Shown here one piece after another: positions 21,576 to 48,596 of a stretch of 48,596 nt of DNA. The stretch comes from Folioceros fuciformis (Eukaryota). The stretch spans positions 1 to 48,596 of the forward strand of contig JBNGIO010004124.1 in the NCBI GenBank assembly GCA_049999805.1, read 5' to 3'. Each line of letters starts with the position of its first letter. The stretch's first letter is position 1. The position numbers were made by a program, and so were the translations under genes. The notes under the pieces are model-generated. The model did no database searches. It was not told the DNA's origin and saw only the letters and a list, made by a program, of their open reading frames with translations.

Positions 21576-22228
21576 TTATTTCTTTCCCCTTGTGTCTTGC
21601 ACCCTGGCTTTCACACGCTCAGTTGCACGCACCAAAAGAGGCGCTCACTTACATGGATGCAAAAGCCCCTACGGCCCCCACTTGCATCACGGAAAGTCCC
21701 TGTTGTGACTTGCATCAAGGGAAAGCTGTTACACTCGCTGCACTGAAACCTTCCCAGGGTTTAGGAAAAATGTTTGACAGTTGATCATCAATTATGTGAA
21801 ATTTTTTATCTAAGACGAAAGGAAATTACCCATCACAAAGATCGCTGTATTGGATGTGGGCGCACCGAGCGTTTGGGTATGGCTACACCGAGCAGATACC
21901 GTCATTTTTATGCCGGGCCGATGCAGCCATCCTGGTGATGGCGGAAGTTGTCGCCGTATGCGGAGGCAATTTCTTTTCCACACACCGGCAGAAACATCGT
22001 CGGGTCACTGCAAGGGTGTTCATAGCGTTGTTCCATAACATAGTCCTAGACACGTCCAGAATTGATCTGTGTACTGAGGAGATATGTACATTGGACTTGC
22101 AGAAGTGAATCTCCGAAGGACCTGTCTGCACTAGTCTCGAGGGTGTCGTATCATGCAAAGGACCTAAGCACCCTGCAGCGGTTTTTAGTCTCTTCTGCAT
22201 CCCATCGTCTGAGATTGGTGCCTGTAAC

Positions 22229-25129
22229 ATGCCCTCAGTATGCCAACCAGATCCATTTTCGACCCAACAAATTGGTGAATGTGCAGGGCTTGAACGAGGA
22301 GCCCCGGCCCACCTCACATCAGGGAGTCAAACGCTTGCGGGCTACCGGTGCCGCATTTCCAGGTACCCAGGACTTCCAGGCAAATGGATTGTTGGGGAAG
22401 GTTTTTCTACCGATGGTGGTCGCCAGCACCAGGAGCTTTTGTGGCGACAATTTTTTCAGGACCCTGGCATGTGGTGGGATACCAGGCGAGGTAAGACGAG
22501 CTCTCGCTCGCCTGACTTTCGGTGCAAGGAGTCCCGTGAGGTCCTCTGGTTAAACAACATGTTCAAGCCAGCGTGGGTGGATGAGAAGCTCGTTTCTTTG
22601 AACATGCAGGTGGGTGGTCATTGTGCCTGTCCTTCCAAGTCGAGATCTCCGGCGAAGCCTGAGCCTGGCAGGCGTGCCGGATCGGAAATGGAAGTCGTGA
22701 CGCCTGTAACCATCAGCATGTCGTGTGAGCAGGGAAAGCTTACTGAGGCCATTGGAGCTCTGGAATCTCTGGCACACACAAACACTTCTATTCCTCAGTC
22801 CATCTTTTATACCGTGCTAAAACTTTGTGCATCCAAGAAGGATATGGTTCTGGGACGACGCGTTCATGATCTCATTGTCAAACTTGGGTATGAGTCAGAC
22901 ACATTTTTGGGGAATCATGTCTTGCGGATGTATGCATCCGGAGGTAGGCTTCAGGAAGCCTTGGATGTGTTACACAGGGTGGGTAACCCAAATTCCTTCA
23001 TGTGGTTTTCAATTATCTCCGCACATGCTAAATATGGGGAGCCCCATGAGTCCATACGACTTTACCATGAGATGTGTCGCTCTGGTGTGAAGGCGGATGC
23101 CCACATCTTTGTAGCAGCGCTTCAAGCTTGTGCATTTGCTGTGGACCTGGAATCTGGCAGAAAGGTGCATCATGATGTGTTACACAGTGACATCCCACCT
23201 AACTTGTTTATTGCCAACTGTCTGGTGGACATGTACGCAAAATGTGGTGAACTGGAAGAGGCACGCAGGGTCTTTGACAGCTTAGGTAGAAAGGACGTCG
23301 TGACATGGACAGCCCTCATAGCTGGGTATGCAAATCATGGGCTTGGCCAAGAGGCGCTGGTTCTGTATGGACAAATGGAGCAGGAGGGTGTGATTGTGGG
23401 CAACCATGTTACCTTTGCTTGCCTTCTGAAGGCCTGCGCGAGTGCGGGTGCTCTGCAGAAGGGCAGGCAACTGCACTCACAGATTGCGGAGAGAGGACAA
23501 CTAGATAACACTCTTGTGGGCACTTGCCTGGTGGACATGTATGCAAAGTGTGGCGAATTGGAAGATGCGCATAGAGTTTTTGAATGCCTGAGCTCAAAGG
23601 ATGTGGTGACTTGGAATGCCCTCATTGCTGGGTATGCACAGAAAGGGCTTAGTCAAGAGGCGCTATATTTGTATGGACGAATGCAGCAGGAGGGCCTGAT
23701 TGTAGCTGATGAGGTCACTTTTGCTTGCCTTTTGAAGGCCTGTGCAAGCGTCGGTGCCTTACAGAAGGGCAGGCAGCTGCACTCGCAGATTGTGCAAAGG
23801 GGACATTTGGATAACAAACTTGTGGGCGCTGCTCTAGTGGACCTGTATGCTAAGTGTGGGCAACTGGATGATGCACGCCTCGTTTTTGACAGCTTGGCCA
23901 AGAAGGACGTGGTGACATGGACGGCCCTGATTGCTGGGTATGCACAGCAAGGTCTTGGCCAAGAGGCGTTACTTCTACACGGACAAATGGAGCAGCTGGG
24001 ATTGACTGTGGCTCAGCATGTCACTTTTGCGTGCCTTCTGAAAGCTTGTGCAAGTGCTGGTGCCCTACAGAAGGGAAGGCAGTTGCACTCACAAGTTGTG
24101 GAAAGTGGATCGCTTGATAACGTACTTGTGGGCACTTGCCTGGTGGACATGTATGCAAAATGTGGTGAGCTGCAAGATGCTCGCCGAGTCTTTGATAGCT
24201 TGGCATCAAAGGATGTGGTAACATGGAATGCCCTGATAGCTGGGTTTGGTACTTGTGATGAAGGACACAATGCACTGGCTTGTTTCGATGACATGCTTGC
24301 TGCTGGTATTCAGCCCGATGATGTTACGTTCACTTGCCTTCTAGGAGCATGTAGTCACGAGGGACTGGTGAATGAGGGTTGCAAGCTCTTCGATTCCATG
24401 GTTCAACAGCATGGCATCAAACCCACCATTGAGCACTACAATTGCATGGTTGATCTTCTCGGGCGTGCTGGTCGTTTAAATGAGGCAGAGAACATGCTCT
24501 TATCATGTGAGAGCCAAAGCAATGTCATCGGGTTGACGTCTCTGCTGAATGCCTGCAAAAGTCATGGGGATATGGAGAGGGGAGCACGGTGTTTCGAAAG
24601 TCTTGTTCGGCTACAGCCTCAGAGCGCATCCGCATATGTGCTCATGGCCAATGCCTATGCAGATGCGGGCAGGTGGACTGATGTGGAGAGGGTTGAAACA
24701 CAGAGAAAGGCAGCAGGAGCCAACAAGAAACCTGCAGTGGCAGGCATTGAAGTGAAGAAGCAAATACACACCTTCATGGTTGGGGGTAACAGAGACGATC
24801 TGGCATTCAAGGTAGAGAGCACGAATGCACGTCTGAAGCAGCAAGGGGGCCATGTACCACACACGAAGTTGGTGTTGAAGCCACTGTCGGAAAAGGAAAA
24901 GGAAGACGTGCTTTGCGGGCATGCTGAGAAGCTAGCTTTGGCGTTTGGTCTCTTGAACACTCCAAGTGGCACACCCCTGGTTGTAACGAAGAATCTACGC
25001 ATGTGCAGTGACTGCCACAGCTCCACAGAGATTATGTCAAGGGTTGAAAAGAGGGACATTGTGGTAAGGGATGGGTACCGAGTGCATCGGTTTGCTGCTG
25101 GTTTTTGCAGCTGTAAGAGTCGACAATGA
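22229..25129 (+). CDS. PLS-class PPR protein with KP-type DYW domain and N-terminal PDF (OSB-like) motif; paralog 2
   Basis: Colinear with paralog 1 from the first Met, with one PLS triplet fewer. Contains KKPAVAGIEV, GHAEKLA and CSDCH, and ends CSCKSRQ*. Confidence 0.93.
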   Translation: MPSVCQPDPFSTQQIGECAGLERGAPAHLTSGSQTLAGYRCRISRYPGLPGKWIVGEGFSTDGGRQHQELLWRQFFQDPGMWWDTRRGKTSSRSPDFRCKESREVLWLNNMFKPAWVDEKLVSLNMQVGGHCACPSKSRSPAKPEPGRRAGSEMEVVTPVTISMSCEQGKLTEAIGALESLAHTNTSIPQSIFYTVLKLCASKKDMVLGRRVHDLIVKLGYESDTFLGNHVLRMYASGGRLQEALDVLHRVGNPNSFMWFSIISAHAKYGEPHESIRLYHEMCRSGVKADAHIFVAALQACAFAVDLESGRKVHHDVLHSDIPPNLFIANCLVDMYAKCGELEEARRVFDSLGRKDVVTWTALIAGYANHGLGQEALVLYGQMEQEGVIVGNHVTFACLLKACASAGALQKGRQLHSQIAERGQLDNTLVGTCLVDMYAKCGELEDAHRVFECLSSKDVVTWNALIAGYAQKGLSQEALYLYGRMQQEGLIVADEVTFACLLKACASVGALQKGRQLHSQIVQRGHLDNKLVGAALVDLYAKCGQLDDARLVFDSLAKKDVVTWTALIAGYAQQGLGQEALLLHGQMEQLGLTVAQHVTFACLLKACASAGALQKGRQLHSQVVESGSLDNVLVGTCLVDMYAKCGELQDARRVFDSLASKDVVTWNALIAGFGTCDEGHNALACFDDMLAAGIQPDDVTFTCLLGACSHEGLVNEGCKLFDSMVQQHGIKPTIEHYNCMVDLLGRAGRLNEAENMLLSCESQSNVIGLTSLLNACKSHGDMERGARCFESLVRLQPQSASAYVLMANAYADAGRWTDVERVETQRKAAGANKKPAVAGIEVKKQIHTFMVGGNRDDLAFKVESTNARLKQQGGHVPHTKLVLKPLSEKEKEDVLCGHAEKLALAFGLLNTPSGTPLVVTKNLRMCSDCHSSTEIMSRVEKRDIVVRDGYRVHRFAAGFCSCKSRQ

Positions 25130-29578: not shown

Positions 29579-31581
29579 ATGGCGACGAGGGATGAAACAT
29601 ACCCGGACTCACCAGTGCGTTCCTCCGCCCTGTTGTATTCTTGATGTGGTATTTGGTGTCTTCGTGGTGTGTCTTGCTTTACACAGCAATTAAGCAGGTC
29701 ATAGCGGCTTCCTTTGTCTCAGAGGGCCTTCGTCGGTTGCTGCGGGTGCATTGGAGGACCGTGGCCAAGAAAGCCTGCATCAAATGCTCAAACCGGCCAG
29801 CCGGCATCGTCGGGAGCCACACAGGAATGGAACGTTGGGTCACCATCCTTCTTAGTCCCACCGTCGTCCCCTGTTTCGCTAGAGACCTCGGCTGTACTAA
29901 CGCCATCAAACCACTCAGCCTCGCCGCTGGATGACGAAGATTTGGACTTAGGTTTCTTCACCAAAGAGCACAGAGCCAGTTTTGTAGACGATGAAGTCGA
30001 CGTCGGTGCCCCAAGTAGACTTCAATTGACCATCGTGAGCCCACCTTCACTTCCAACATTCGGTGGCGCGCCCGCCGGAACAGTGGATTTACTGTCGTCT
30101 GAAGAAGAATTACCAGACCCTGCCAGAAGTCCTGGCTTTGCTCCGTTCCCACGCCAAGACTTGTTTGGACGTTTGGAAGGTAATGGCAAAAGAGATGCCC
30201 GTCTCGAAACCGGCAAACGAGTTCTGTTCTCCGTACGCAACCTAATTCATCCGCACGGTGTCCATTTGGCTACAGGATCTGGCAATCACGAGCATGAAAT
30301 TCCAGGGGCATTACAGCCTGATGACTGCACCGACGACAGGGGTTTCGCGTCTGAAGGCAGCGATGACAGAGTTTCTGAAATTCCCAGACAAGCTTTTCCA
30401 GCAGCCGAAGCCGAGAGCTTGGGGAATGCTAGGGACCAATATCGTTCAGTTGTTCCAACGTTGGCCAAACCCGAACAGTTCCACATGCAGAAGGCGAGGC
30501 AGGAAGAGTTGGACGAGGAGGTGGCCGAAGCGGAAAGGTCGAGGCCGATTGAGAGTACCTTGGAGGACGAACTCCATCCAGTTATCCCAATGTTAGCAAC
30601 ACCCGAGCAGTTCCACATACAGAGGGCAAGGCAGAAAGCGTTGGAAGAAAGCGAAAGAGCGAAGCAGATCGAAGACGCGAAAGCCAAGGCAGAAACTCGG
30701 ATTCTGGTCCCTGCTTTGGCTTCACCCGAGGAGGTCCGACGAAAGCAGGCCAAGCAGAAGGAGCTGGAAAAGGCGGAGGCGGAGGAATTGCAGGAGCGCG
30801 CTGAAGCGAGGCAGAAGGAGTCTCAGGTGGTTATTCCCAAGTTGGAACCTCCGAGAAGTAGCCTCGATGACAAGAAAACATCCGATCCTAGACAACACGT
30901 GGCAAGTGATCCAATGTTGACCATTCCCGTGCCTCCCCTCGCAAGGCCTGAGGAGAGCAATGAGGATAGGATCTGGAAGGGAGAGCATGGTGAAGCTGGG
31001 CAAAGCCCCAGGTATGTTGAGCTTGTGTCTCGGGTTGAGCAGCTTTCCTTGGATCTGGAGACCTCCAAATCCAGAGAGCAAAAATCTAGACTGCTTCTGG
31101 AATGGTCTGAATTGAGAGTAAGTACCTTTTCCGTGCAACGTTTCTTAGTGCTGGTGTCGTATAGTGGAAACAAGTTTCAACCTTTTAAGGCTAGCGGTTC
31201 CAATCACCCCCCGCTCTCCCCACCATTGTAGAGCCACAACCCCATGGAATCCTAGGGTGACAATACTAATTTAGAATCTGGCATTGGTCATCCGTGGACA
31301 GCAGGATTTGCTCCATGCAGACTGACTCAGATGTGATCGACTTGCAGGCCAACAGCCTGGAAGGACACGTTGCAGGACTTTCCGAGGAGCTGACACAACA
31401 GCAAGCTCTTTACTTGGACCTGCAAGCCCGACACCTCAGTCACATGGGGATCACTCTGCCGGGCCCCGAGTTTTCTTCAACGAGTTTCCCTTCCGAAGAA
31501 ACCAGCACTCCGGAAAACTCTGCGCCTTCTGCTGTCCTCACTGAGAGGCTCCTGCGGGATCAGACTTTCTCAAACATGTGA
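29579..31581 (+). CDS. Uncharacterised protein with internal P-x-LA-x-PE repeats and C-terminal coiled coil; probable exons 29579-29614, 29723-31117, 31348-31581
   Basis: 505-codon open frame. A GTAAGT donor at 31118 and a TTGCAG acceptor at 31347 join in frame to ORF 31294-31581. The first exon is inferred from ATG 29579 and GT/AG sites. Confidence 0.65.
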
Positions 31582-31716
31582 GCCATACACATGAACGTGG
31601 GCCACCCCACGATTTAAAATGTATTCTACGAAATACCGACGTGCTTTCAGTTACAAGGGCATTTGTGAATTGGAATAACAAACATACTAACGGCAACCCA
31701 TGAATAAGAAGGAGCT

Positions 31717-33405
31717 TCAGACATCGGTAGTCGACTGGTTCGCAGGCAGTGGGGCTGTTGAGTTGCCGTCGGTCTCGCCGGGGTGAGAGCCTCCTTTGGC
31801 GCCGCGGGTATGGTTGATTGCTAGCAGAGCCCAATCATCCAAATGGAGGGCGATGAAAGTCCCTATCCCTCCTATCAAGCCGTAAGCAATGGAGTACGTG
31901 AGTGGCATGAGTATGATGGTAATGAAGGCGGGAATGCCTTCCTTGAGGTTGTCCCAGTCGATCTCCACCACAGACTTCATCATCAGCACTCCCACCAACA
32001 GCAGGGCAGGACCCACAGCCCATGGAGGGATGGAAGCAAGCAATGGCGTGAGGAAGAGCGCCAGACAGAAATAGAAGGCAACAGTGAGAGCGGTGAGGCC
32101 GGTGCGGCCTCCCTCTCGGATGCCCGTGGCAGACTCGATGAATGTGGTCACAGGAGAGGTGCCGAGCGACGCGCCTATCACAATAGCTGTGGCGTCGCTC
32201 ATGAAGGCGAAGTACTGGCCCTCAAAGTTGCCCATCTCGTCCACGAAGCCTGCGAATTTGGCCATGGAGTAGAGGGAGCCGGTTGCATCTAGAAGATCAA
32301 TGTAGAGGAAGGTGACCAAGGCTACCCAAAACTCGCTCCTCCCTATGTCATGGAAGCTCAAGGCACCGGCAGTGTGCTCGATCTTGTGCACCTGCACCAC
32401 CTTCTTGAAGTAAGCATAGGCAGCATCTCCGGCCTCAGTCTCGGGAAAGTAGGTGACCTTGGTGTGGCGGAACCAGGAAACTACTGTGACAAACAAGATG
32501 CCATAAATCATAGCGCCCTTGATGTTGTAGATAAGCGTGTAAGCAATGAGGAGAAAGCCCACCACCGCCAGCCAGAAGGTCGGGTCTTCCATGGTGTTCC
32601 TCTCGCACATGATGGCTGAGGTGACCACTCCCCCAGGCATGAGCGCCACCGTGCCGTTGACAGTGATGACGGGAGCCAGCTGCAGCCTGTCCTCGCGAGG
32701 ACACGCGCCCAAGGTGACGAGAGTGGAGCCGCTGCTGGCAACGAGCCCCACGCCCTCGCTGGACTGCAGTCCGATGAAGGCTAGGAAAAGGCCAATCCCT
32801 GCGGACGTGGACATCCGCACGGGCTTTGGGATGAGCTTGGCCAGCTTGGTTCGAAAGCCAAGCCCGGCGATGATGAGGAAGAGGAAGCCTTCCACGAAGA
32901 CGGCAGCGAGGGCGCTCTTGTAGGACAGGCTCCCGGAGCCGTGGAATCCCACCACGGTGTAGGCGAAATACGCGTTGGTGCCCATCCCAGGAGCCAGTGC
33001 CAGCGGCAAGTTGGCGAAGACTCCCATGATAAGGCACCCGATGAGGCTGGCGGCTGCAGTGGCCACGATGAGGTCCTTCTTCACGGCCGTCAGGCAGTCG
33101 GCATAGCCCACATCCACGGGCGGGAACTTACAACCGGGCCCCGGGAGCTGTCCCGGGGGAAGCTGCGAACCGTCGGCGAAGAAGCCGGTGCAGTCAGCCA
33201 CACTGCAGGTGCCGCCGGAATCCGTCAGGATGCTAGCGTTCACAGCCAGTATATAGGCCATGGTGAGGAAGGTGGCCGTGCCGGCTCGCAACTCGCGGGT
33301 GAGGTAGGTGCCCCGTTGCTCTAGCTTGAAATGCTTGCCGACGATGCTCCGGTTCACGGCGGCGTTCACGGATTTGAGCAGGGAGTCCCATCTCCCTCCG
33401 GCCAT
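31717..33405 (-). CDS. AZG1: Adenine/guanine permease (AzgA/NCS2 family), AZG1-like, intronless
   Basis: [75 protein letters not shown] and [14 protein letters not shown]. First in-frame ATG at 33405. Confidence 0.93.
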
Positions 33406-33829
33406 CCAAAGCTGCGTCCTCGTCGTCGTGCCACACGGCAGCTTGCGCGTCACAGGGCCGAGGGCTATGCTCTTCTATGCATGCGCTGCTTGTTCCATGC
33501 ATCCCTCTCCCGACCCAACACCATGCCCTTCTCTTCTAGCACGTAGAGTCGCAAACCATTTGAAAGCCATATGCACTTCGACAGGGGTAACCCGCAGTTC
33601 TCTCTAAATGATTCTGTTTTGGCGCGTTCGTGTGACTCGCTTGGATGATTGCGGCTGGTTGACTGAGCACATCTTATCGACCAACCAAACTTCAGCCACC
33701 CTGAGGACAGCTGGAATTTCCAGGAGACAGGAGCTCGCTGTTTCCATTCTCTCTTAGCCTGTTCTCTCCCTCTTTCCCTGGTTGTGTCCTTATTCTCTTC
33801 GGTGAATTTTACAAGAATCTAGGTTTGGA

Positions 33830-34450
33830 CTCGACTCTGTGTTTAACACGGCTACAGTAGTAACACCCTTTTTCCACCAATGTGGGGCAACGTGCTGGTA
33901 GAATCTACCAGCGCGTAGAGGTCTATCTATCTCTCGCAGAAATTGACGTATCAAAGGACCCATATTATTTACCAAGTTCATGCAATGTCACAACAATTAT
34001 ATCATCCTCCGTCACTTCTGAATCTATCATAGCAAGTTGATTTGCTAACATCTTCACCTCAGTTATGTACACAAGTATGTTTCTACTACCTTGTGACACA
34101 TTGTTGAACTACTACTTTAATTGCATCTTCCTTGTATGTGTGACATTCCCATTGTTCTTTATGAGTATATCCCATGCATCCTTCAACAACTTACATCCCG
34201 TGATCCATAGGACTATAACATCTTAAACGCTTAGTGAGAACCACCGTAAGACTTTACATGCTCTCTCTCTGTCCATAGCTTATAAGCTCTCCGTCACTAT
34301 TGTGATGGATTTCTACTTATTTCAGGTTTCATCTCATCACCTATACAAAGGTCCCCAATGCATCCTAAACTTCCACAAGGCAAAATTCTTGTTGTCTAGC
34401 TTCTCTCCAACAATTTGAGAAATGTTCTCCAATCCCTATGTGTTTGCCAT
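33830..34450 (-). mobile_element. Highly decayed Ty1/copia gag fragment
   Basis: Manual minus-strand translation gives KLDNKNFALWKFRM, YITEVKMLANQLAMIDSEVTEDDIIVVTL and a knuckle remnant CYYCSRVKH, with many stops and frameshifts. Confidence 0.7.
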
Positions 34451-35013
34451 ATCTTAGGCTTCCTTCTTAACCAGCACTTTTACTTGTAGTGTCTTTTCAA
34501 CTACTTCACTCTCAACACTCCAATATATCCTTGCTATCTTGAGTTTTTGTGCACCTGAACTGGATACCGAATATCCAACTAGATTCACTCCTTACAATCC
34601 TCATGTGCCTTGCTCTCACGGACTGCTCCTCTAGCAAACGCCCTTAGTGCCTCCTTAGCATGTCCTTCCTCCAAAATTACTACAAGACTTGATTGACAAT
34701 CGTACTGCTTCTACCTGCCCGTGCTCACACACCCCCTTATGCAATTCCTAGACACACACTTGCAACACCTAGCAAGAAAATTTGCTTGGGCAAGCTTCTA
34801 TAGGTCATCAATCCTCCCTACATTCCTCACCCAATGCTTGTTGTGTTTGGTGCCACTTCCTACAATCACTACTGTTGTCTGCAACTATCTTGGCAACTTC
34901 TTACGCTCAATTTGGCAGTGCCTTGCAGCCCTCCTAGCCAAACTCACTAGAGCATGCCTCAAGCAGTTCTTATCTACTAAGTCTCCTAAAGCATCTCTAG
35001 GCCACATAGTCTC

Positions 35014-37236
35014 CTAGCGCGCACGGCAATTGGCTTCACTTGAGATTGGCCTCTTCTCAACTGGTATGTACGCAAAAGCTCTCGAGCCAAAGACGTGAAG
35101 ATGCATGATACTTGGTTTTCTCTTCCAGAATATCTCGAAAGGCGTGCTACTAGGAACCGACTGTGATGTGAGCTTGTTGAGTATATACATAGCTGTCACT
35201 ATTGCTTCTGTCTAGTATGGAGAAGGTAATCCTGACCACAAGAGCATTGACCTCGTCATTCCCATCAATGTTTGATTCTTTCATTCTGCCACCCCGTTTT
35301 GCTGCTGGGTATATGGAACGATAAGTTGATGAATAATGCCTTGGCTGGTTAGGAACTCCGTGAAGTCATGGTTGACAAATTCACCACCATTGTTAGTCCT
35401 AAAGAGCTTTAGCAAATGACCAGTTTGACGTTGCACCATGATCAACCAATCCTTGAAGATAGGGAATGTATCATTCTTATGGTGCATCGGGTATGTCCAC
35501 GTATACCGGCTATAGTCATCAGTTAAAGTCAGAAAGAAGGCTGCACCTCCGAGTGACTGAATTTGTAGCCTGCCTGATATGTTTGAGTGCACAAGGTCGA
35601 GGACTGATGTTGACCTATGAGCAGGAGCCCTTGGAAAAGGAGTCTCTCGTTGCTTTGCAAGGGTGCAAACTTCACAAATAGGCAGCTCCTTGAAACAACG
35701 TGGGAGAGGCTCACAATAGTAATGCTGCCTAGAGGCATCAATCAATTTAGTTCTATTAGCATGGCCTAGGTGTGCATGCCACAGCCTGGCCTACTGGACA
35801 GCTGTTAGGCTGCCAACTATGGTGGAACATGCTTGCTGTCGTCGGAGGCAAAAAATGTCAAGACGGTACAATTTGGAATCTATGAAAGCTTTGAAGATAC
35901 ATATGGCTGGGGCACTATGTCTAGAGAAACAACAAGCGTCTTCTGAGACGGTAAGAACTGAATCCTTCATTTTCATCAATCTGCTAAGTGACATTAAATT
36001 CTGAGCCATCTTAGGTACATACAAGACGTATGGGAGGACTAACATGCTATCATCGTGTAAGGGAAATTTACAGACTCCTCTACCAAGGATCTGAAGACTA
36101 CTCCCTACACTCTCATCACCCAAGTATACTTTTTCAGCAACGGCTGATAGTGTTAAACTGGTAAAGAGAGATTCATCCCCACAGATATAGGCTATTGCCC
36201 CTGAGTCCAAAAACCAACAATCCACCTCACTCGTTAAAGTGTTAAGACAAACAATAAGGATCGTTACTACTGGCTTGCCTGAATTTGTGGATGTTGTTAA
36301 GGACTGTCTGTCCTGACTACATTTTTGTGTGGTTGTATGTGTAGAGGGTCGAGAAGAAGCCCGTTGAGGCTCGCCGGCTTTCTTTTTCCAGCATTCCCGT
36401 GCCCAATGCCCTGGAGTGCTACACAAATTGCATGTACCTTGTCGTTTCTGAGCAGAGGAAGATGAACCAATGTTGCCAGGTGTGTATGAACCATGGCCAG
36501 CACGTTGATTCGGATTTATCCCCCTTCCTCTACCTCTGCCTCTAGTTGCTAAGAAAACTTTGTCGGTTTTCTGTTGCTTTTGCTGCCCTCTCATAAGTCA
36601 TGTTTGTTCTTCTTGGTATAGGGCTCCCACCACAGCCTCCAGCAAACGAGTTGGAGCACCAGCTAGTAGGGACTGGCCAAGAAGAGCAATGGGCATATTC
36701 TGAGTGGTGACAAAAGTTTGATAGCTTGTAGGAAGGCTGACTAGAAATTGTGCCACTACATCAGCCTCAGTCATAGGACTCCCAAGTGTGTTGAATTGGG
36801 ATCGCAAGCATCGAAACTTGCTAATATGATGTGACACAGACTCACCATCTCTCATTCGCAGGCTGTAGAGTTCAAGGCAAACTGCACAAAGGGTCATCAT
36901 ATTCTGAACCTTGTAAGTGTTTGACAATTGGTATCATATATCCTTGGCATTAACCAAGTATTTAGTTTTAGGAATGAGGTCAGCATCCAAGCCGTTAACC
37001 AAGAGAGCAATGGCAATGCTATTGAAGCCATCCCAATTATCCTTGTCGGCTTGAGTGACAGTTGTAGGAACTCCTGTTGCACCAGGTACATCAGGATCCT
37101 TGTAGGAGCCATCAACAATAGTCCAAACGCCACGAGCGACCAAGGTAGTCTTCATGCGAACCTTCCAGATGTCAAATCTCGTTCCATTAAAGCAGTCTTT
37201 GTTCTTTACGTCAAATGTAAATGAGGGAGTTGACAT
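35014..37236 (-). mobile_element. Ty1/copia retrotransposon remnant: gag, CCHC knuckle, protease, GAG-pre-integrase and integrase; truncated before RT
   Basis: FNGTRFDIWKVRMK, CNLCSTPGHWAREC, WFLDSGA, LWHAHLGH, CEVC, DDYSRYTW, PYTQQQNGVAE and TPFEIFWKRKPSIMHLHVFGS, with in-frame stops. Confidence 0.92.
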
Positions 37237-38288
37237 GGTGAAATGCAGGATGTTAAGTGCACAAAAGCGCTGTAGAACTGCTACAAGGAAAAGTGTTCAC
37301 AAATAGCTACAGGGGAATGTCAACTGACAAGGAGGTATGTAGGACCATGTATGTGATGGTTCACATCTAAAATAACTGTCTAAAACCGTTGTGAAAAGTG
37401 CCCTAAAAAACTAATTAGGAAAACTGACCTAAGTTTGGAAACGTGCCCTAAAATGTAATGAGGATGTTCTGGTGATGTTCAAGTGGCAGGGAAAATAACT
37501 GTTGAACTATGGATTGGCGGCAAAGATGAAATTGGATGAGTTGCACATAGAACGCATCTGATCCGATAGCACAATCACCCAATTCATTGCTCCAGTATGA
37601 TAGAAGTGGATGCCAAATTACTGCGCAGCACTCCAGTGGTGCCCTCCACATGCAGCGGAATTCAAAGAACAGGATCTGCAGGGCTCTGCTCTGATTGACC
37701 CAATTTCTGTATCAACTTCACATCAGAATACTATAGAAATAATTGGATCAGATTCTGAGTAGCCAACACACCATTGCTGATGTCCTTGCTACATTGATCC
37801 ATTCCATGATGCATTCTCTTCTCCATGTCATGTAAAGCTGTGAGAAATAGGTCTTGTCTTGCAATCAAATGAAAGATGCAAATGTCAAGTCTGCCATAAT
37901 GGTAATTGATCAATTTTGACAGTGAGTCATCTGAATCTGGAACATCATCATCATTCTTCTCACCTGAAATCGCGTCATCTAAATTTAGGATCTTTTCCTT
38001 CAATTTAGAATTTTGCAAATTTTGATCAAAATAATAGTGTGATGATTCCCCTTTGCAATCTCTCAGTTGATTACATACTGTCCTCATTCTTGTGTTTCCC
38101 TGTTCCAATGCACACGGATTTGGGTGTGATACTCATCAAAGTATTGATTCCATGGCCCGTCACACATTGGGGGAATCCACTGCACTCCTCTACAGTTGCG
38201 TGGAAATACTTCACGCGATGGAGGTAGTGCATGCGATTCCTTCCTGCTAGGCATTGGACAAGAACCAAGAATCAGTAGATGGCATCAT

Positions 38289-38492
38289 ACTATGATACCA
38301 TGATCCAATCCGTAGAGCATCAGTAGCTTGATAGTAATGTGTGCTTGCGGATAGGTGGAATAGAAGAAAATGGATAATCAACTGAATAAACATGAAGAGC
38401 AAAGAGTACTTATAGTACAATGTATTTAACCTAAATTAACTAGGCATATTTAACCTAAGATGGTTATGTATTCAACATACCTCACCCTCACA
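38289..38492 (-). mobile_element. Putative short LTR (38301-38492, TG...CA) with adjacent tRNA-iMet-like PBS (38289-38300)
   Basis: The minus strand reads TG...GGATCA|TGGTATCATAGT, a 10/12 match to the canonical TGGTATCAGAGC. The segment begins exactly where the copia RT frame breaks off. Confidence 0.5.
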
Positions 38493-39466
38493 TCTAGGTA
38501 CTACGTAGCCTTTGGGTTGCTCCATGTAGATTTCTTCGTTCAGATCTCCTTTTAGAAAAGCAGTTTAAACATCCATATGATATATCTCCATATCCAAAGT
38601 AGCAGCGATAGCAAGGAGTGCTCGGATAGAGGCTATTTTCGCGACAGGAGAGAAGGTATGTGTGTAGTCCACACCTGGAATCTGCGTACACCCTTTTCCC
38701 ACCAGCCTTGCCTTGTACCGCTCTATGCTGCCGTCAACCTTCCGCTTGATCTTGAAAGTCCACTTCGATCCTATGCACTTCCTTCCAGGGAGTAGGGGAG
38801 TAATAATCCACATTTTGTTGGTAATGAGGGAGTTATACTCACTGTCCACAGCTTCTCTCCATTCTTTTGCATTTGGGCCTGCGAATGCCTTTGTCAAGCA
38901 GCGGGGTTCTCCAACATCTACAAAACACACCTCCTCATTAACACATCCATTAAGAGATTCTATGAGCTTCTGTGATGGCTTTTGCAACTTGGTAGATTTT
39001 GTAATGTTGGTTGCAGTTCTGTAACTCGATAGTCTTCTTCTACTTCTTCAGTAAAATCAAGAGTTTCTCTCTCTCCCCCCTCGATGTTGCATTCTACACT
39101 TGCGGCTGGGGGTAAGACTCCAACTACGTCTTCAACCACAGTGACATCATGACTGTCTCTCCCTCCCCCCCCCTACCCTATGTCGTAAGGTTGAGAAGAG
39201 TAGACAGGCATTGGAGCGGAAATCACACCATAGTCTGCGGCAGACTCGAAGGGAGCGAGTAAGGGAGGAGATGAAGCTCCCACTCCAGTTGTAGCCTCGG
39301 CAACCTCTTGAAAAACAACATCCCTGCTAAAAATGACCTTCTTCATAGTAAGATCGTATAACCAATAACCTTTCACTACATCGGAATAGCCAAGCATGAG
39401 ACACTTCGTACCATTAGAATCCCATTTGGTCCGGCTCGCCTTTGGAACACGAGCATAGACCTCGGA
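38493..39466 (-). mobile_element. Ty1/copia fragment: post-integrase region and N-terminal reverse transcriptase
   Basis: EVYARVPKASRTKWD..GTKCLMLGYS, VIFSRDVVFQE, CIGSKWTFKIK..DGSIERYKARLVGKG, QIPGVDY..TFSPVAK, YHMDV*TAFLKGDLNEEIYMEQPKG. Confidence 0.92.
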
Positions 39467-39741
39467 CCTTGGCATTCCCAGCCAGCTATTAGCACGTCTA
39501 TGGATCCCAGGGCTTGGATGTGGCCTTGTTGGATGTACATGATGTCTTCAGGCAGTGCTGAGAATGTGGCAACTAAGGCTACCTCCGATAGCTGTGTGGG
39601 GAACGTGCTGCGGAGCTCTTGTAAGCGATGAGCAGCTATCTGCTGTGCTTCCCTGCTGCTGTCACATTATGCATAGTGCCTTGTAGGGAGGCCTGCCTTA
39701 AGCAAAGCCTTTAGGCCAGTACAAATGCCACCAAACAACTT
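39466..39741 (-). pseudogene. C5-cytosine DNA methyltransferase-like fragment (motifs I-IV)
   Basis: One frame reads KLFGGICTGLKALLKAGLPTRHYA*CDSSREAQQIAAHRLQELRSTFPTQLSEVALVATFSALPEDIMYIQQGHIQALGSIDVLIAGWECQG, with a single stop at 39667-39669. Confidence 0.75.
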
Positions 39742-42400
39742 TCGAGAAAAAGGCCGGCGGGGCTAGGATAGGCCAATCAATCACCTGAGACTTGACAACA
39801 TGCTCTTGCATGGGATCCTTGAGTCCTCGCTGCAACAGAGCTTGCCCATGCTCATAAGCATCCTGCAGCACACCCTCAACCTGTGTGGGATGGTCAGCGG
39901 CCTTGATCAGATCTGTCAATCTCCATGTGGCTGTGGTGTTGCTGGAGTAGCTGTCACAGTGCTCCTCCTCTTGCTCTGACTCTAGGTGGTCCTCATCTTG
40001 CAAATGGTTGCTGGCCAAGGGTGTTCCCTCACTCACCAGGATTGCTGTACAGGCTTGTCGCTCTACAAGTGTAGCTGTGTCAGCCTCTGACATGTCATGC
40101 AACTGAAGGGGTAAGTGTGCCACCCTTCTTCCTCCTTGCTTCCAATCTGGATGATAATACGCCTGCTCTGTCCAGTTGTCCACTCTTAAACCTAGTGAAA
40201 ACAAAAATTCTTGCCCTAATAAGACGTCATAGTTTGTGGCTGTTGTCACTAGGCATGGAAGACTCAGTGTCATGGCATCTGGAGTGCCTAGCTTGAGTGT
40301 GATATCCACAGGCTTGACAGGCGACTAGCTCAATGGCTCCTGATGCTGTCCTTATGCTCCAAGGAGAGCTCTTGAGAGCTGAACCATCAAGGTTCAGCTT
40401 GGCAGCTAATGTCTTGCCAATGATCACTAGTTGAGCACCAGTGTCGAGCAGTACAACCCTTGGGGCATACCCATTCACCGTAATATGCCCCGCATCATTG
40501 TCGACAAGTGCATTGCCGACTCTGACTGCTAGGCGATTGGTGGGTTGGATCCTAGGAGAGCTAATGGGTTGAGCAGGCTACCTTCCAGCTGCTGCAACTT
40601 CAAACATGCTTCCAGCTACTGTCTCCCTGGTGCAAGGTGAGATGCTACCAAGTACCACCCACCCATTTGGAGCTAGTGGCCAACATGATGCTCCTGAAGA
40701 CAATACAACTGCTTGCGCTGGTTGCAATTCCTTGGGCAGACGCTCATGTCCTAGCCCCATGTCTTGCAAAGAAAATAGAGGAATGCCAGTCAGTTTCTCG
40801 GATAATTGTTCCATAGTGAAGGCCCTGGGCATCAAGTAGAATGGCCCACTGGCTAACATCTGTGGTTGTGGTGGAGGCTTGTTTACTAACTGTGGCCCTC
40901 CTGCCAATGTGGAATGCTCTTGCCCTCAAACTGGGATGGCACTTCCTGGTGACAGTGGTGCAAAAGATTGGGGCATGACCGCCTTTGCTCCTCGCTGCCG
41001 AGTGACTAGCCCTACTGCTATCTCCAACACTGGTGGGTATAAATGTGTGCCCTACCCACGTCTGTGGCAACTCAGCAGTTGTCATCTCAGCCTCCATCTA
41101 GTTGGCGACACACACCTGATGTGGTGAGCCGTAATCCTCCTCCTTGTCTCTGACCAGTTCAGCAACACTGGTTGGTTTGGGTGAGGTTGCTCCACTACTG
41201 AGACTAGCTGTAAGCGCGCCCAGCTGCGAAGATAACGTTGCAACAGTGGCTTCTAGGGCAGATACCTTCTCTGCATTGGATGCAGCCTTAGCTTTGGCCT
41301 TGTCCCTTTGATGTCGGCTGCATGAGACCCCAACACTGATACCAACTTCTGTGGTAGCTGTACCTCCCGCATCGGCTGTAGTCCCTGTCCCACTGCTTGC
41401 ATTTTTCTGAGATCTTCTCTCTGGATGCTTCTGAAAACATATTGTGACCACATGTCCATTCTTGTGACAATGTGTACAATACAAGCCTTCCAGGGAGCAT
41501 TTGCAGGCTGGGCTCATATGCTCAGAACTGCCACAGTAGTTGCACAAAGAAGCAATTGTAGCTGCAGCTGCTCCAGCCTTGATAGGCTTGGCCTGTTGTG
41601 ACTTGGCCCTTGAACCTGTTGCAGTAGACCCCTTTGTGGAGAACATAGACTGGTAATGAGTAAATGCCTTGGAGTGTCGTGAAGCATATGCAGAGAAAGC
41701 GATCTCCCTGCATTCAGCTTCTTCATGTACTTGCTCCAAGGTATACCTATCACCATATTTATCCACCAACGCTATGATGAGCTGAAAATGAAAGAGTGGG
41801 TCTCCTTCCAAGGCTGTTAGGAATTTCTCCGCTCGGATGATGTTGAGCGAACGGATGCTTGTGAGGAGGTGGAGGAGGATTGAAGCCATGAGCGCGAGCA
41901 ATGGGCAGCTGGTGGTGCATCCCTCCCGAAGTAGCCTGGCTTGCCACAGGCTCTTGCTAAACATCCTGGAGTATCTCCAAAGGTGTGAATTACGGGTATG
42001 GTATGCTGATGAGTTGCTACACTCTGGCTTGAACCCTGACGAGAAGGTCAAAGGAACTGGACGATTGCTCAATCAGGTTGCAGCCAATCTCGGGGATCCA
42101 TTTCCAGTTCAAGGGGGTTACGGTGGCCTGGACAAGGGTTAGAGGCGCAGGCTGCCAAAAGAATGCATGCAGACAAAGGCGAGGGACTGGCAAATTGCCC
42201 CATCCAGATATTGGAGTGTGGTCAACCAGAGGACATAACTAACATTTGGCTGTCCGTCGACAAGCAGCATGTCTGGCTGCTCGCAGGCGGAAGGTCTCAA
42301 TACAGACATGCTGCTTGTAGACGGGGAGCCAGATGGTGGAATGTCACTTTTAGGTGCCAGGTTTACAAGGCTGCCCCTCGAGGGCACCAGACCAACAGCA
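39466..42400 (-). mobile_element. Decayed retroelement: gag with two CCHC knuckles, aspartic protease, then C5-DNA-methyltransferase-like domain; truncated downstream
   Basis: CNYCGSSEHMSPAC and CTHCHKNGHVVTIC; VVLLDTGAQ...NYDVLLGQEFL; then KLFGGICTGL...DVLIAGWECQG at 39741-39466. Confidence 0.8.
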
Positions 42401-42585
42401 ACGTGGAGGCTAAACGAACGTGAAGAGGTGGAGGCTCTGAAGGGTGCAGGATGCTCTGAAGGAAAGGGATGGAATGATCTGAGAGAAGAGGGAGGGTGTT
42501 GAGAGGCACTAACGATTTTGGTAGTCTTGAGAGGTTGGTCAATTTTGGTAAGGGTACCCAGTGGTGTCCAGGGGACACAACCCCT

Positions 42586-42740
42586 ATTAGGTCGGGGTTA
42601 GGATTAGGTCTGATTAGGTTAGGTCAGACTTAGGGTTAGATTTAGGTCAGAACTAGGTTTAGGTCAGAGTCAAGTTAGGTCAGAGTTAGGTTAGATCAGG
42701 GTTAGGGTTAGGATTAGGTCGGAGTTAGGTTTAGGGTTTT
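42586..42740 (+). repeat. Degenerate telomere-like (TTAGG/TTAGGG/TTAGGTC) array
   Basis: Dense run of ttagg variants, e.g. gggttagggttaggattaggtcggagttaggtttagggtttt. Confidence 0.8.
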
Positions 42741-43655
42741 CACGAGTGGAGGGTTCTGTCGGAGGCGTGCTGACCTAGTTAGACAGTGATAGGGGTTCCT
42801 GGCCAAGGGGGTATAAGAGGCTAGGCTTGTCATTGAGGAGGGGTCTTTTTGGTGAGAGCTCCCTTAACCTTGTGTGTAGGCTGCTGGGTTAGAAGGTTAA
42901 ACCAGTGTGCAAATGCACCTCGGCCTCAATTCCCCATGCCACTAGGGGAACGTGGCGGCTCCCAAAATTGCTGAGATCTGGGTGGCCAGATCCGCAGGGG
43001 TTGACCTTTCTTGCAAGCTGGTTGGGTGGTTGGGGTACCTTGACATCCCTAAGGGGTTTCCAAGGTGATGGGCTGCAAGGCTGTGACCCAAGGAGGCTAT
43101 CCAGCCTGGGTCTGCACATTCCTGCCTCAAGGACTGCAAGTGAGGGGCTGTTGTGTTCTAAAAGTCCAGGAGTGAAACGTGAGAGTGAAGGGCTGAAGAG
43201 TTGAAGTGCTGAAGTAGAGATTTGAAGTGCTGGAGTTTGGAGTTGTTGTGCTGAGGTGAGGAGCTTAGGTGCTGAAGTTCTCAATCAGCCGCTGAGTTGG
43301 CTGACATTAGGGCTGAGAGTGGAGGCCGAGGCCAGGGCTGGGGCCTCCTCTCAGATGCTAAGGCGGCTGATACCTGGAGCTGGGAGTGGGAGCTGAAGAT
43401 GATGCTGGAGTTCTCATTCAGTTGGAGTTGGGGTTGGTGTTGAAGACGGGGCTAAGAATGCTGATCTTTTTGTTGTAGTGTGGTTAGGTCTACGAGCCAG
43501 CTGGTAGATAGGATTAGATTAGGGCAGTGCGGGGAGATTGTAGGAAACCTTGACACTAGTTCACTCCCTTGGGAGCGAATCATAGTACTGCAACGATAAT
43601 AAGGGGGAAGTGTGGCCCCTTAGTGGTTCTTGGGTGTAAGTTCCACTCCACATTT

Positions 43656-43672
43656 TGGCATCGTTGCCGGAG
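43656..43672 (+). promoter_or_regulatory. Primer binding site, tRNA-Asp-like
   Basis: CA-TTT-TGGCATCGTTGCCGGAG resembles the Athila-type PBS TGGCGCCGTTGCCGGGG. Confidence 0.7.
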
Positions 43673-46600
43673 AGTGACATTGTTGTTAGGGTTTAGAGGG
43701 GACTAACCTAGATAGGGAGTTGGATAAGGGGATGCTGGAGGGGCTGGTGGATGCCCCGCAAAGGAGCTGAAGACTTCAACTCCAGCTGTGAAGAGGGGGC
43801 TCAAGCTCAAGCAAGGAGGCAGCAACAAGCATCGGAGCGTGGGCAAAGAGCAGTGGAAAGGGAGCTGAGGCACCATGGCAGCTCCAGCTATTGCAATGCC
43901 CACCAAGCAGCCATACCCCTTGTATGGGGAGAAGAAGGGGTATGAGAACCCGGATGAGTTTGTGGAGAGGTTTGAACAGCTGACCCTTGCTAACCAGGAA
44001 TTAGCGGAGTGCCAAGAAGAGAAGGAAGGAAGCTGAATCCACTACAGGATCGGAGGAGGAAGGGAAGAGCACTCCACATGTGGAAGGGTCAGGCCATGAG
44101 GATGGAGATAAGGGGGGACAGATCTCCGAGAGGGAAAAACTAAGGACTGAAAAGGAAGTAGCTCCAGCAAAGGAGGGGAACCTGGAATTTCCACCAGATG
44201 TGCGGGGAGAGGTCATGGACATGATCCAGGAAGAGCTGGATAAGGCAACAAAGATGGCAAGACCTGTGGCTGCAAGTGAGCCACCTAGGGAGGTGGCAGC
44301 AGTGACTAAAAGCACAGCCAGGGCTGACCAGAAGCCATTCGACTTGGCTGGGGCCATCATGGATCAGCAATTTGCTGTCACCTTTGGCCAGCTCTTGAAG
44401 GACAACCCCAAATACCGGCAGCAAGTCTGGAAGGCCTTACAGGAAGCCCAACCCAAGAAGAAGAAGAGGCTGCCTAAATCAGGGCCAAGGGTGTCAGCCC
44501 CTACGGTCAACATGGTGTCCATGGTGGACCAAGGGCCGGCCAAGTTGCAGGTGGAGATTGCGGGCTGCGTGATTAAGAGGGTTCCGCTGGACACGGGTTC
44601 AAGGGTGAATATCATGACGAAGGACACCGCTAAGAAGCTCGGGTTGGAGGTGGAGCCCACAACCAAGGTCTTGAGGCTGGCTTATATGTCCAGGGTGCAG
44701 CCGTGGGGGAGCTGAGGGGGGTGACCACAACCATAGGGACCATTCCCTACCTCCTCAATTTTGTGGTTATTCAGCACAAGGCACTGGGCTATGACATCTT
44801 GCAGGGCAGGACTGGTTGTATGGCTCAAGGTGCAGGCTATCATGGGGGAGGAAGGAAGTGGCCTTCAAACCATCGGAATGGGACCCCAAGACAAAGGAGG
44901 GCAGGATTTGCTTGAGTTGGAGCCGGGACGTCTATCTAGGTGAGACCCCCACGGAAATGGAGGTATACGTCCGTAGGAGACACATCTGAATTGGAGGAGG
45001 GGGAAGGGGAGGACAAGTTCCCCTTTTCTCAAATCTCATGGTTAGATGAAGAGGAGGACTACCGGAGGGATATTCCTTATTCCCTGAACCGGGTGGAGTG
45101 TTTTGGAATCACCCTAGACTGCACCATGGTAGGGGCTGAAGGACCAACCGTGGATGAGCAGGCTAGTGAGGTTGCTGAAGAGAAGGTCCAGGAGGGGGGT
45201 CCACGTGCCAAAGGAGGGTGTGAAAGAAGGGGAGCTGATGGAAGGGGGCTGTGACCCAAGGGCAGATGGACCTGTTGGTGATGATCCGGAGGTCACAAGG
45301 TTCGCCTCCGAGGACCTATTCAGAGAATGGGGAATGAGGGAGGAAGATCCCCGGGAGCCGGAAGAAGGGTTTGGAGTTAGCTCAGCACCGGTGGACCGTG
45401 AATGGGTGCAACCTGATGAAATCAAGGATGTGGAGGTACTACCGGGCAGGTGCTGAAGTTTGCAAAACGGCTGGATGCCACATTGGAGGAGGGCATGAAG
45501 CAACTCTTGGCTGAGTTCATCGATGTGTTTGCTTTTGAGGTGACGGACATGAAGGGAATTCCCAAAGAATGGGGGGAGCACAAGATTGACTTGGAACCAG
45601 GAGCTGTCCCTGTCCGAATTCCACAATACAAGCTAAATCCAAAGTACTCTATGAAGTAAAGGAGCAGCTGGAGCTGTACGTGAAGGCATATATGCTTTTT
45701 CCCATTGTGAACTTGGAGTGGGTGGCTCCAATGGTGGTGGTGCCCAAGAAACAGCCTGGTAAGATTCGGGTGTGCCAAGATTGGAGGAGGCTGAACAAGG
45801 CTACCAAGAAGGACCATTTTCCCTTGCCATACATTGACAACATTCTAGATTTGGTGGCTGGTCGAATGATGTACTCTAATCTGGATGGCCACTCCCGTGA
45901 CAATCAACTGTCCTTAAGGGAGAGTGGCTGGCCATTGACAGCCTTCACATCTGATTGGGGAACATATGCCTACAAGAGGAGTGCATTTGGGTTGACAGGA
46001 GCACCAGGGTCCTTTATGCGCAGCATGTACAAGATCTTCAAGGATTTCCTCCACAAGTTCCTGGAGGTGTTCACAGATGACTTCTACGTGTCTAGGGGAG
46101 TGGAACAACATCTGGAGCACCTAAGGCTATGCTTGGCCAGGTGCAGTGAGACACAGCTTTGTTTGCATTCGGAGAAGTGCTATTTTGGCATGGCTGAAGG
46201 GATTTTGCTGGGTCATAGAATTTCAGCACGAGGCATTGAAGTGAACCTGGATAAGGTGAAGGTGATTGCTGCTTTGAGGGCCCCAACCACACTTAAGGAG
46301 CTGCGTGGTTTTCTTGGAATGGTAGGGTACTGTCACCGTTTTGTGCCCAATTTTGCTAGACGGGCTGCTCCTTTGACAGGCCTATTGAGGAAGGAGCAAC
46401 CTTGGGAATGGACTGTGGAGAGGGAGGCTGCGTTTTAGGACTTGAGGACCACCCTTGTGATAGCACCCACCCTCAAGGGGCCTGATTGGGACAGGAAATT
46501 TCATGTGTACGTGGATGTGTCTGCATTTGCCATTGGGACAGTCCTAAGCCAGCGGGATGAGAAGGGGAGGGACTACCCAATCTACTATGCTGGACACCAA

Positions 46601-48596
46601 CTCACGGAGGCTGAGCGCAAGTACACCACAACCGAGAGGGAGGCACTTGGCATGGTTTACTCATGTCGTAAATTTCATCATTACTCCTCTCCTATGAGTT
46701 TTTGTTCCATGTGGATCATTTTGCTCTCAAGCACCTGGTCAACAAGGCAGATCTATCGGGCTGGATAGTCCACTGGATTTTGCTCCTATAGGAGTTCACA
46801 TTCACCGTGGAAACAAGAGAAGGGTGCAGACATGTGAATGCTGATTTCCTGTCAAGGCTGAAGACAAAGAAAGTGGTTCAAGACTAGGAAGATGACTTTT
46901 CGGAAGAGGCGTTTTCAGCAGAGCCAGTTGGGAAAGAAAGGGCCAAACCAAATGCTAAGTTGCCAAGAGATGGAGGTGTGGCGCCGAATGAGAAGGGGAG
47001 AAGAGGGTTTCGTAAACTGTCTTACCAAGAGGTATCTGATTTTTTAGGCACGGGGGAATTTCCAGCTGATCTCTCACGGCAGCAGCAACGGCTGTTCCTT
47101 TATTTCATGAGGCTGGTAGTTAAGCACAAGGACAAGGTGTATCGCACAGGAGCTGATGGAGTGGACCGTTTGTGGGTCAACCATGACAAAGTGGAGCAGG
47201 TTATCAACTCCTTGCATGAGGGAGAGGCTGGAGGTCATTATGCAGCCCATGTAACCTGTAGAAAAATTATGGCAGTAGGGTATTGGTGGCCAACAATGCA
47301 TGCTGATGCTTGGGAATTCATCAAGAGGTGTGATGCGTGCCAAAGGGTGGGGAAGCCTACCAAGACAACACAATGGCCATTGGTCCCCATCCTAGCTCTA
47401 GCACCATTTGAGAAGTAGGGGATTGATTTCGTAGGACCAATTCAGCCAAAGTCCAAGGGGAGGCAAAACCAATACATCTTGGTAGCAACCGACTACTGCA
47501 CACGCATGGTGGAGGCTCAAGCTTTGCCCGTGGACACAGCGAATGTGGTGGCCAGATTTTTGTTTGAGCAGATCATCACAAGGTATGGATGTCCGTTACA
47601 GCTCGTAAGTGACAGGGGCACTCACTTCATCAATGAAGTGGTCAAGCACATGACTGAATATTTCAGTATCAGTCATAGGAAGACCACTCCCTCCAACCCC
47701 AAGGCCAATTGGCTCACGGAGAAGGCTAATGGGTTGTTATGCAAGATTCTCAGCAAGCTAACCGTCACATATGCTCATGACTGGGATAGGAAGCTTCATT
47801 CAGCCTTGTGGGCATATAGGACTGCGGAGAAGGTCACTACCTAGCAGACCCCTTATTATCTCACCTATGGACACTCCCCGGTCATGCCAATTGAATTCGA
47901 GGTACCTACCTTGAGAATGCAGGAGAGCAACTGATTGCCAGTGGAGGAGAGCCAGCTGGAGAGGTTGACTAGTTTTGTGCAGCATGAGGAGGATAAAGGA
48001 CGGGCCTTGGCTGTTTTCCTTGAGGTCCAGGAGAGGAGGAAGAAATGGCATGACCAGAAGTTGCGTAAACAGGAGTATGTCTTCCCTGGAGATTTGGCCT
48101 TATTATACGACAATAAGTACATGCACTTTCCAGGAAAGCTGCACTTGAGGTGGATGGAGCCTTACAGAGTGCTGGAGGTGTATGAGAATGGATCTATCCA
48201 ACTACAGCACCTCAATAGCCCTAACTTGCCAACTAGAGTCAACGGCTGGCGAGTGAAGAAATATTATCAGTAGTTGGTGGGGACGCCAACAAATGAGAAG
48301 GGGAGTATGTGGAGACCACATGGTAGACGGGCCTCTTAGAAACAGGGTAGTATTTTTTTTTTTGAGTTTTGAGTGAATTCCTTGGAAGGATAATTAGGAA
48401 ACTATGTTAGATAGGACTAGATTAGGTAGGCTGATTAGGAGATAGCGGTAGTGGAAATCAGAGAGTGAACAGTCGTCTAGCTAACCCGTGCCCATGGAGA
48501 AGGCGAAGTAATGGGTGGAGTGTGCCCGTCACGAGGGATGCCTGCATGTGTGGAACCCTAAGTCAGGTGTGTGAGGGTGAGTGGGGGCCTTGGGAG

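Follow-up and report, generated by a model that had tools for sequence, protein, structure and literature searches.

Does the minus strand of the stretch studied here (contig JBNGIO010004124.1 of Folioceros fuciformis, positions 1 to 48,596, hereafter the window, 48,596 nt in full) hold a piece of a retrotransposon that carried its own cytosine DNA methyltransferase (DNMT), and if so, to what kind of element did that piece belong? A preliminary description, made from the letters without database searches, had read at 39741-39466 a frame with methyltransferase motifs I to IV and one stop, directly after a gag with two zinc knuckles and a retropepsin. It had proposed a dead land-plant member of a gag-protease-DNMT(-reverse transcriptase) element family, a kind of element thought to be poorly described in land plants. 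Our analysis indicates, with a probability of roughly 90%, that the minus-strand region 42072-39466 represents the decayed remains of the 5' part (gag, protease, linker and start of the DNMT) of a Ty3/gypsy-type retrotransposon, the intact relatives of which encode a DNMT3-type C5 methyltransferase between protease (PR) and reverse transcriptase (RT). The parts of this region are the following (ORF, open reading frame).

42072-41098, minus strand: gag-like ORF, 324 codons from stop to stop, found as a translated ORF
41544-41437, minus strand: two CCHC zinc knuckles (C-x2-C-x4-H-x4-C), strings read directly in the gag ORF
40577-40227, minus strand: retropepsin-type aspartic protease ORF, with its core at 40484-40326 and the string LLDTGAQ
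40315-39956, minus strand: C-terminal half of the protease and the linker between PR and DNMT, in a frame that differs from that of the PR core
39741-39466, minus strand: N-terminal 92 residues of a DNMT3-type C5 cytosine methyltransferase domain, from motif I (LFGGICTG) to motif IV (GWECQG)

The gag and the retropepsin ahead of the DNMT piece were confirmed, the gag knuckles by direct reading and the protease by profile. In the Pfam scan the protease ORF matched PF13975 with 31.5 bits (cut-off 28.2) and PF13650 with 31.3 bits (cut-off 24.3), while zf-CCHC reached only E = 0.19 on residues 177-191 of the gag ORF, under the cut-off. Relatives are named below with P-numbers for unnamed proteins and L-numbers for metagenome loci. 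By tblastn, the second gag knuckle aligned with the gag knuckle of L001 ORF1 (residues 408-437, 47% identity, E = 0.007), the protease region resembled the PR of the same ORF (residues 709-761, 42% identity, frame -1), and the linker region resembled its residues 761-888 (32% identity, frame -2) as well as residues 324-424 of P0006 (36%). No Pfam family was matched by the linker region 40315-39956. The window copy thus has the Ty3/gypsy trait of a gag with zinc knuckle together with a D(T/S)G aspartic protease.

The translation of 39741-39466 reads KLFGGICTGLKALLKAGLPTRHYA*CDSS...LPEDIMYIQQGHIQALGSIDVLIAGWECQG, running from KLFGGICTGL to VLIAGWECQG, and contains a single TAA at 'YA*CD', exactly as first described. 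Motif I (FxGxG), which binds S-adenosylmethionine (SAM), is present as LFGGICTG at 39738-39715, and its F and second G are invariant across two alignments of the family, A1 and A2. Canonical motif IV is Pro-Cys with the catalytic Cys; the window copy (GWECQG, 39474-39466) keeps the Cys and has Glu where Pro is expected. It lacks about 220 residues of the domain.

With the 92 residues as phmmer query, a library of 1.84 billion cluster representatives yielded 367 relatives at E<=1e-3, of which 44 reached E<=1e-10; the top match had E = 2.2e-23 and 53% identity. The piece is 30-46% identical to 30 or more metagenome loci, and a word-indexed search for longer proteins gave a single match. Alignment of the fragment with a profile of the six intact domains of A2 by hhalign had a probability of 99.3% (E = 1.5e-20), with 92/92 columns aligned from motif I to motif IV. 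One check proposed in the preliminary description failed, for the 92-residue translation had no match to PF00145 (the Pfam C5 methyltransferase family) at E<=10, and its homology became visible only through relatives. This missing match would be all that favors a chance resemblance to methyltransferase motifs. It is attributable to the shortness of the fragment and not to absence of homology, as hhalign indicates, and with E = 2.2e-23 among 1.84 billion proteins and the hhalign probability given above we regard chance resemblance as already refuted, its probability being practically nil. The sequence comparisons thus show the fragment to be homologous to a DNMT3-type domain.

The type of the domain was gauged on the relatives, not on the window fragment. 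Their full domain has about 310 residues and, after the motif IV region (P/E)-C-Q-G, carries the strings ENV/ENT, AHRxRxxWTN, ERERAMGF and LGxAMD, which we take to be motifs VI, VIII, IX and X, respectively. Motifs VI (ENV), VIII, IX and X were not found in the window by tblastn, the domain ending at 39466. With a cut-off of 22 bits, PF00145 was matched by three of the five relatives in a first set (a fourth had 16.2 bits and one had no match), by 2/3 and 6/8 proteins in two further sets, by all six intact domains of A2, and by all three Marchantia proteins scanned. Among the matching relatives are P0096 (58.4 bits), P0010 (45.5 bits) and P0037 (41.5 bits); a partial Sphagnum protein in the same scan as the Marchantia proteins had no PF00145 match. 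When the A2 profile was searched against all PDB chain sequences, the best hits were DNMT3A (3.5e-18) and DNMT3B/3C (about 1e-17), followed by M.HaeIII (8.6e-9), a tobacco DRM entry (2.2e-7) and DNMT2 (1.9e-4), and no DNMT1 was found at E<=1e-3. A single-sequence search of the PDB gave the identical ranking. Because both the profile and the single sequence match DNMT3 best, the domain of the family is, by homology, a DNMT3-type C5 methyltransferase. Furthermore, pairwise dN/dS of the DNMT domain is 0.115 (L001/L002), 0.109 (L001/L003) and 0.090 (L002/L003), so that the domain is under purifying selection among intact copies. Two loci gave uninformative pairs: for L004, dS could not be computed, and for L015, the values were >1 and the stretch contained a stop.

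Three architectures were observed among the relatives. In architecture A, to which the majority of long matches belong, the order is RT-RNase H-DNMT-integrase-PHD finger. In architecture B it is gag-PR-DNMT-RT-RNase H-integrase-PHD. PR followed by DNMT occurs in eight proteins of at least 450 aa (P0006, P0010, P0029, P0076, P0092, P0096, P0122, P0138) and DNMT followed by RT/RNase H in four (P0089, P0091, P0109, P0147), while the entire order from PR to PHD is present in metagenome loci L001, L003, L008, L017 and L031. Architecture C is represented by a single DIRS-like protein, P0126, in which the DNMT lies between RT and an RNase H-like stretch and a Dam domain is also present. This protein (1417 aa) matches the C5 methyltransferase family PF00145 with 33.6 bits and the Dam-type adenine methyltransferase family PF05869 with 45.9 bits; its RNase H-like stretch was recognized by eye. 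In a tree of the domain, architectures A and B form separate groups. The proposed gag-PR-DNMT(-RT) family therefore exists in the proposed order, in proteins, metagenome loci and Marchantia gene models alike.

Three observations assign the fragment to architecture B. The window and four relatives, P0006, P0010, P0037 and L001, are collinear over the stretch from PR through the linker to the DNMT. Profile hidden Markov models scored the fragment at 105.5 bits for the B type (PR-DNMT) and 93.0 bits for the A type (RNase H-DNMT-integrase). Additionally, the fragment is without the small insertion that A-type domains have before motif IV, and it ends in QG, not QD. The order RT-RNase H-DDE integrase is not present in the window copy and is found in the collinear relatives, and it is likewise through these relatives that a DNMT3-type domain within a gypsy polyprotein is observed.

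This collinearity also bears on the idea that a chance event placed a fragment of a host DNMT3 or DRM gene beside an unrelated gag-protease relic. The neighborhood is a patchwork of broken elements, with a copia fragment at 39466 and a gypsy element on the opposite strand from about 44005, so random juxtapositions do occur here. However, the same order and spacing of PR, linker and DNMT recur in the eight proteins listed above, in 13 Marchantia gene models and in more than 20 metagenome loci, and the linker itself is homologous. From the shared PR-linker-DNMT order with P0006, P0010, P0037 and L001, chance juxtaposition is therefore taken as excluded; we consider it already contradicted and give it hardly any probability.

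A different element class has also to be weighed, namely that of the DIRS-type retrotransposons, which use a tyrosine recombinase and of which SymbioDIRS-Dnmt3 is an example that has captured a DNMT. P0126 combines a DIRS-like RT, a DNMT, an RNase H-like stretch and a Dam-type domain. Furthermore, L031, the sole relative with both ends, has two repeats, A with 342 nt (92% identity) and B with 113 nt (94% identity), in the DIRS-like order A-coding-B-A-B:

L031, 1676-2017, 10238-10350, 10350-10691 and 10693-10805: split direct repeats around a gypsy-type coding region

DIRS elements are normally without a DDE integrase. The relatives with the order of the window, however, have such an integrase (H2C2 and rve) and no Dam domain, although no profile search for tyrosine recombinases was made. 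The repeats do not decide for DIRS either, since the published KnitGypsy-Dnmt3 likewise joins DIRS-like repeats to gypsy domains, according to the legend of its Fig. 4c (PMC5890265). A DIRS-type origin is thus improbable, and the gypsy assignment is preferred. Terminal repeats were not seen in three other relatives examined (L001, L003 and L017). In L036, the contig ends 1-127 and 8769-8895 are 100% identical over 127 nt, which may be a terminal repeat or an assembly wrap-around.

The window copy itself is a dead relic without function, with frameshifts, stops and an end after motif IV. Its homology to an intact relative is spread over three frames by tblastn (PR in -1, linker in -2, DNMT piece in -3), so the frameshift before motif I noticed earlier is real, and the DNMT frame has two more stops in the 15 codons that precede motif I. 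The truncation after motif IV was also verified, because it coincides with the beginning of another element:

39466-38565, minus strand: Ty1/copia fragment, consisting of the integrase C-terminal SH3-like domain and then the start of RVT_2; it adjoins the DNMT piece and is a separate element

PF25597 (retroviral-polymerase SH3-like, copia-type) matched ORF 39547-39173 with 66.4 bits from residue 28, which corresponds to approximately base 39466, precisely the end of DNMT homology, and PF07727 (RVT_2) matched ORF 39047-38565 with 70.7 bits. Because the copia piece begins in the middle of its integrase, the junction at 39466 is explained by deletion or rearrangement and not by a clean insertion. 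A tblastn search with eight relatives and two L001 ORFs did not find the rest of the DNMT, or an RT or integrase of the same element, in the window. A long terminal repeat search detected no direct repeats of at least 60 nt in 30000-48596, and the element has lost its 3' part.

An ordinary second gypsy element (PR, RT, RNase H, integrase) is present on the plus strand at 44005-47889, heading for the window end. Its RT and integrase at 45.6-47.9 kb were considered as the missing remainder of the DNMT-bearing element and rejected, as they belong to this plus-strand gypsy, whose RNase H and integrase matches are separated by only about 190 nt. This gap is too small for a DNMT, so the second gypsy has none.

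In the intact relatives, the frames on the two sides of the DNMT/RT boundary are arranged in a particular way. L001 has an ORF at 976-5085 (1369 aa, gag-PR-DNMT), followed past one stop by a second ORF in the same frame at 5086-8229 (1047 aa), which matches RVT_1, RT_RNaseH, Integrase_H2C2, rve and PHD in Pfam. The second frame of L003 also has 1047 codons. A stop occurs at the homologous place, the DNMT/RT boundary, in 18 of the 24 loci holding both DNMT and RT; five others are frameshifted at the stop site, and one, the divergent L036, is without the stop. The stop was read at base level in 16 loci (L001:5083-5091, L002, L003, L004 and 12 further ones). TAG followed by CAGTTA, CAATCA or CAACCA was found in four, TAG or TAA followed by CAACCC in 11, and two stops in the remaining one. 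The type I readthrough motif of tobamoviruses is given as UAG-CARYYA in the text of PMC5382211. Since 4/16 stop contexts fit this motif, we infer that the stop is leaky, and the conserved in-frame stop suggests programmed readthrough in a plant-lineage retrotransposon.

Retrotransposons with C5 methyltransferases have been reported before, as KnitGypsy-Dnmt3 in the charophyte Klebsormidium nitens and as SymbioDIRS-Dnmt3 and SymbioLINE-Dnmt in Symbiodinium (de Mendoza et al., 2018, PMC5890265). KnitGypsy-Dnmt3 is the closest in build by its published description. An intronless DNMT3-type domain with unrearranged motif order lies within a gypsy-type polyprotein in both, purifying selection is seen in both (Ka/Ks < 0.2 in the paper, 0.09-0.12 in the relatives here), and its A-coding-B-A-B repeats joined to gypsy domains (Fig. 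4c legend) resemble those of L031. The host is different, a charophyte there and a land plant here. Its DNMT is described as lying 'in the Pol polyprotein ORF', whereas here the domain is in the Gag-PR frame, before RT and upstream of the stop, a comparison made at the level of text description. No match named as K. nitens was obtained in the phmmer search of the fragment or in the L001-domain search. SymbioDIRS-Dnmt3 and SymbioLINE-Dnmt share with the present family a retrotransposon-borne C5 methyltransferase, of DNMT3 type in the DIRS version according to the text, but belong to the DIRS (tyrosine recombinase) and LINE classes and to another host kingdom, and only P0126 is DIRS-like among our relatives.

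Among host enzymes, DNMT3A/3B/3C are the nearest solved structures and share with the family the short target-recognition region and AHRxRxxW. Motif IV of DNMT3A ends in ND, in contrast to QG here, and the window copy additionally has Glu for Pro. Host plant DNMT3 genes such as PpDNMT3b are described as stand-alone genes with DUF3444 (Yaari et al., 2019, PMC6453930), in contrast to the polyprotein module here. In the A-type gypsy polyproteins, the DNMT domain is homologous (36-40% identity to that of L001) and the same integrase and C-terminal PHD finger recur, whereas the DNMT lies between RNase H and integrase, with an insertion of 3-4 residues before motif IV, which ends in QD.

The Glu in motif IV is not peculiar to the window copy. 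The 52 motif IV strings taken from the proteins nearest the window fragment include 32 with GWECQ and 11 with GWPCQ, a sample that favors E, since the query used to collect it by similarity itself has E. The bearers of GWECQ include P0003-P0009, P0011, P0012 and others, and some are long open polyproteins. With Glu in place of Pro in the catalytic pair, it is conceivable that the domain of this sublineage is a pseudo-enzyme or has taken another role, as a DNA-, RNA- or SAM-binding module. The prevalence of GWECQ among the nearest strings points in this direction, as does the string LLEH in some E-variants (P0091, P0109) where others have ENV. However, the Cys is retained, most E-variants keep EN(T/V/S) at motif VI (P0004, P0007, P0011, P0012, P0076), and their occurrence in long open polyproteins (P0008, P0009) does not fit simple decay. 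Besides the query bias of the count, P-C is found in 17 of 18 metagenome loci and in the sole Marchantia copy shown (P0299). We consider a pseudo-enzyme or another role in this sublineage possible, though less likely than not.

The domain of L001, used as a query, retrieved 63 proteins at E<=1e-5. Thirteen of these are gene models of Marchantia polymorpha, which NCBI annotates as 'hypothetical protein' (e.g., Mp_4g09160, Mp_8g17980 and MARPO_0091s0058), and one is a Sphagnum fallax protein. All 13 Marchantia gene models have the B order. A literature search found no main text describing DNMT-bearing retrotransposons of land plants; the supplements of PMC5890265 and PMC12344493 may list copies. 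The terms 'streptophytes (Gypsy-DNMT3)' and retrotransposon DNMT3s 'in streptophytes and dinoflagellates' occur in passages of bioRxiv 10.64898/2026.05.21.726589 and PMC12344493, respectively. The expectation of poor description in land plants therefore holds in part: no describing main text was found, but public gene models of Marchantia already include copies, and the family has thus been seen, though not described. It is of a known kind (Gypsy-DNMT3) in a host group that is new as far as the searched texts go.

A mechanism for the intact relatives can be outlined. The leaky stop would make Gag-PR-DNMT abundant and its RT-integrase-PHD extension rare, so that the methyltransferase would be made in Gag-like amounts, and RT and integrase in smaller amounts. 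The enzyme may then methylate newly made cDNA of the element or nearby host DNA, as proposed by de Mendoza et al. (2018, PMC5890265), whose proposal covers self-methylation of cDNA, and the PHD finger may steer integration by reading histone tails. As judged from their sequences, the relatives display a gypsy-type family in the stated order, a conserved stop and purifying selection on the domain. Taken together, it is possible, at somewhat less than even odds, that bryophyte-grade land plants, including the plant of the window, host an undescribed gypsy lineage whose DNMT3-type domain is encoded in the Gag-protease frame, ahead of a conserved leaky stop like the UAG-CARYYA stops of plant viruses. 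The methyltransferase would be produced in capsid-like amounts and probably packed into particles, the element would mark its own cDNA before integration, and the sublineage of the window copy, in which Glu has displaced the near-universal Pro of the catalytic loop although the reading frames stay open, may hint at altered chemistry or a new role.

Several points weigh against these interpretations. Besides the lack of a PF00145 match for the fragment, the window is without RT, RNase H, integrase, PHD or a terminal repeat of the DNMT-bearing element, and its class is consequently judged from relatives with no more than 30-53% identity. The 92-residue fragment falls beside P0143, a protein of architecture A, in a FastTree phylogeny of the domain; at such a length this placement is unreliable, yet it lends no support. 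The evidence for readthrough consists entirely of sequence context. With E-C in motif IV, even an intact copy of the sublineage might not be a working enzyme. In published yeast assays, SymbioDIRS enzymes methylated CG de novo, while the K. nitens retrotransposon DNMT gave no methylation, a result called inconclusive by its authors in the text of that paper (PMC5890265).

A transposon equipped with a de novo methyltransferase of its own poses a paradox, since DNA methylation is the main route of transposon silencing in plants. Together, the relic in the window, the 13 gene models of Marchantia and many similarly built unnamed contigs show that the lineage reached land plants. Marchantia is a tractable model in which the activity of the enzyme, the sequence context that it marks and its effect on host methylomes can be approached. 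If the DNMT/RT stop is leaky, a readthrough signal of plant viruses would be in use by a retrotransposon.

The surroundings of the relic bear out the land-plant origin that had been proposed for it. Two neighboring intronless PPR-E-DYW genes are present on the plus strand at 17379-20612 (1077 codons) and 22109-25129 (1006 codons), and the window also has a PORR gene among others; because of these genes, its DNA was attributed to a land plant. The best named relatives of the PORR protein, none above 60% identity, are from liverwort (59%), lycophyte (54%) and ferns (52-54%), in addition to seed plants. The PPR-E-DYW pair probably encodes tandem organelle RNA-editing factors. On the minus strand at 39547-35281, the copia pieces are permuted, with integrase C-terminus and RT (39547-38565) ahead of gag, protease and integrase N-terminus (37296-35281), which suggests tandem or recombined copies.

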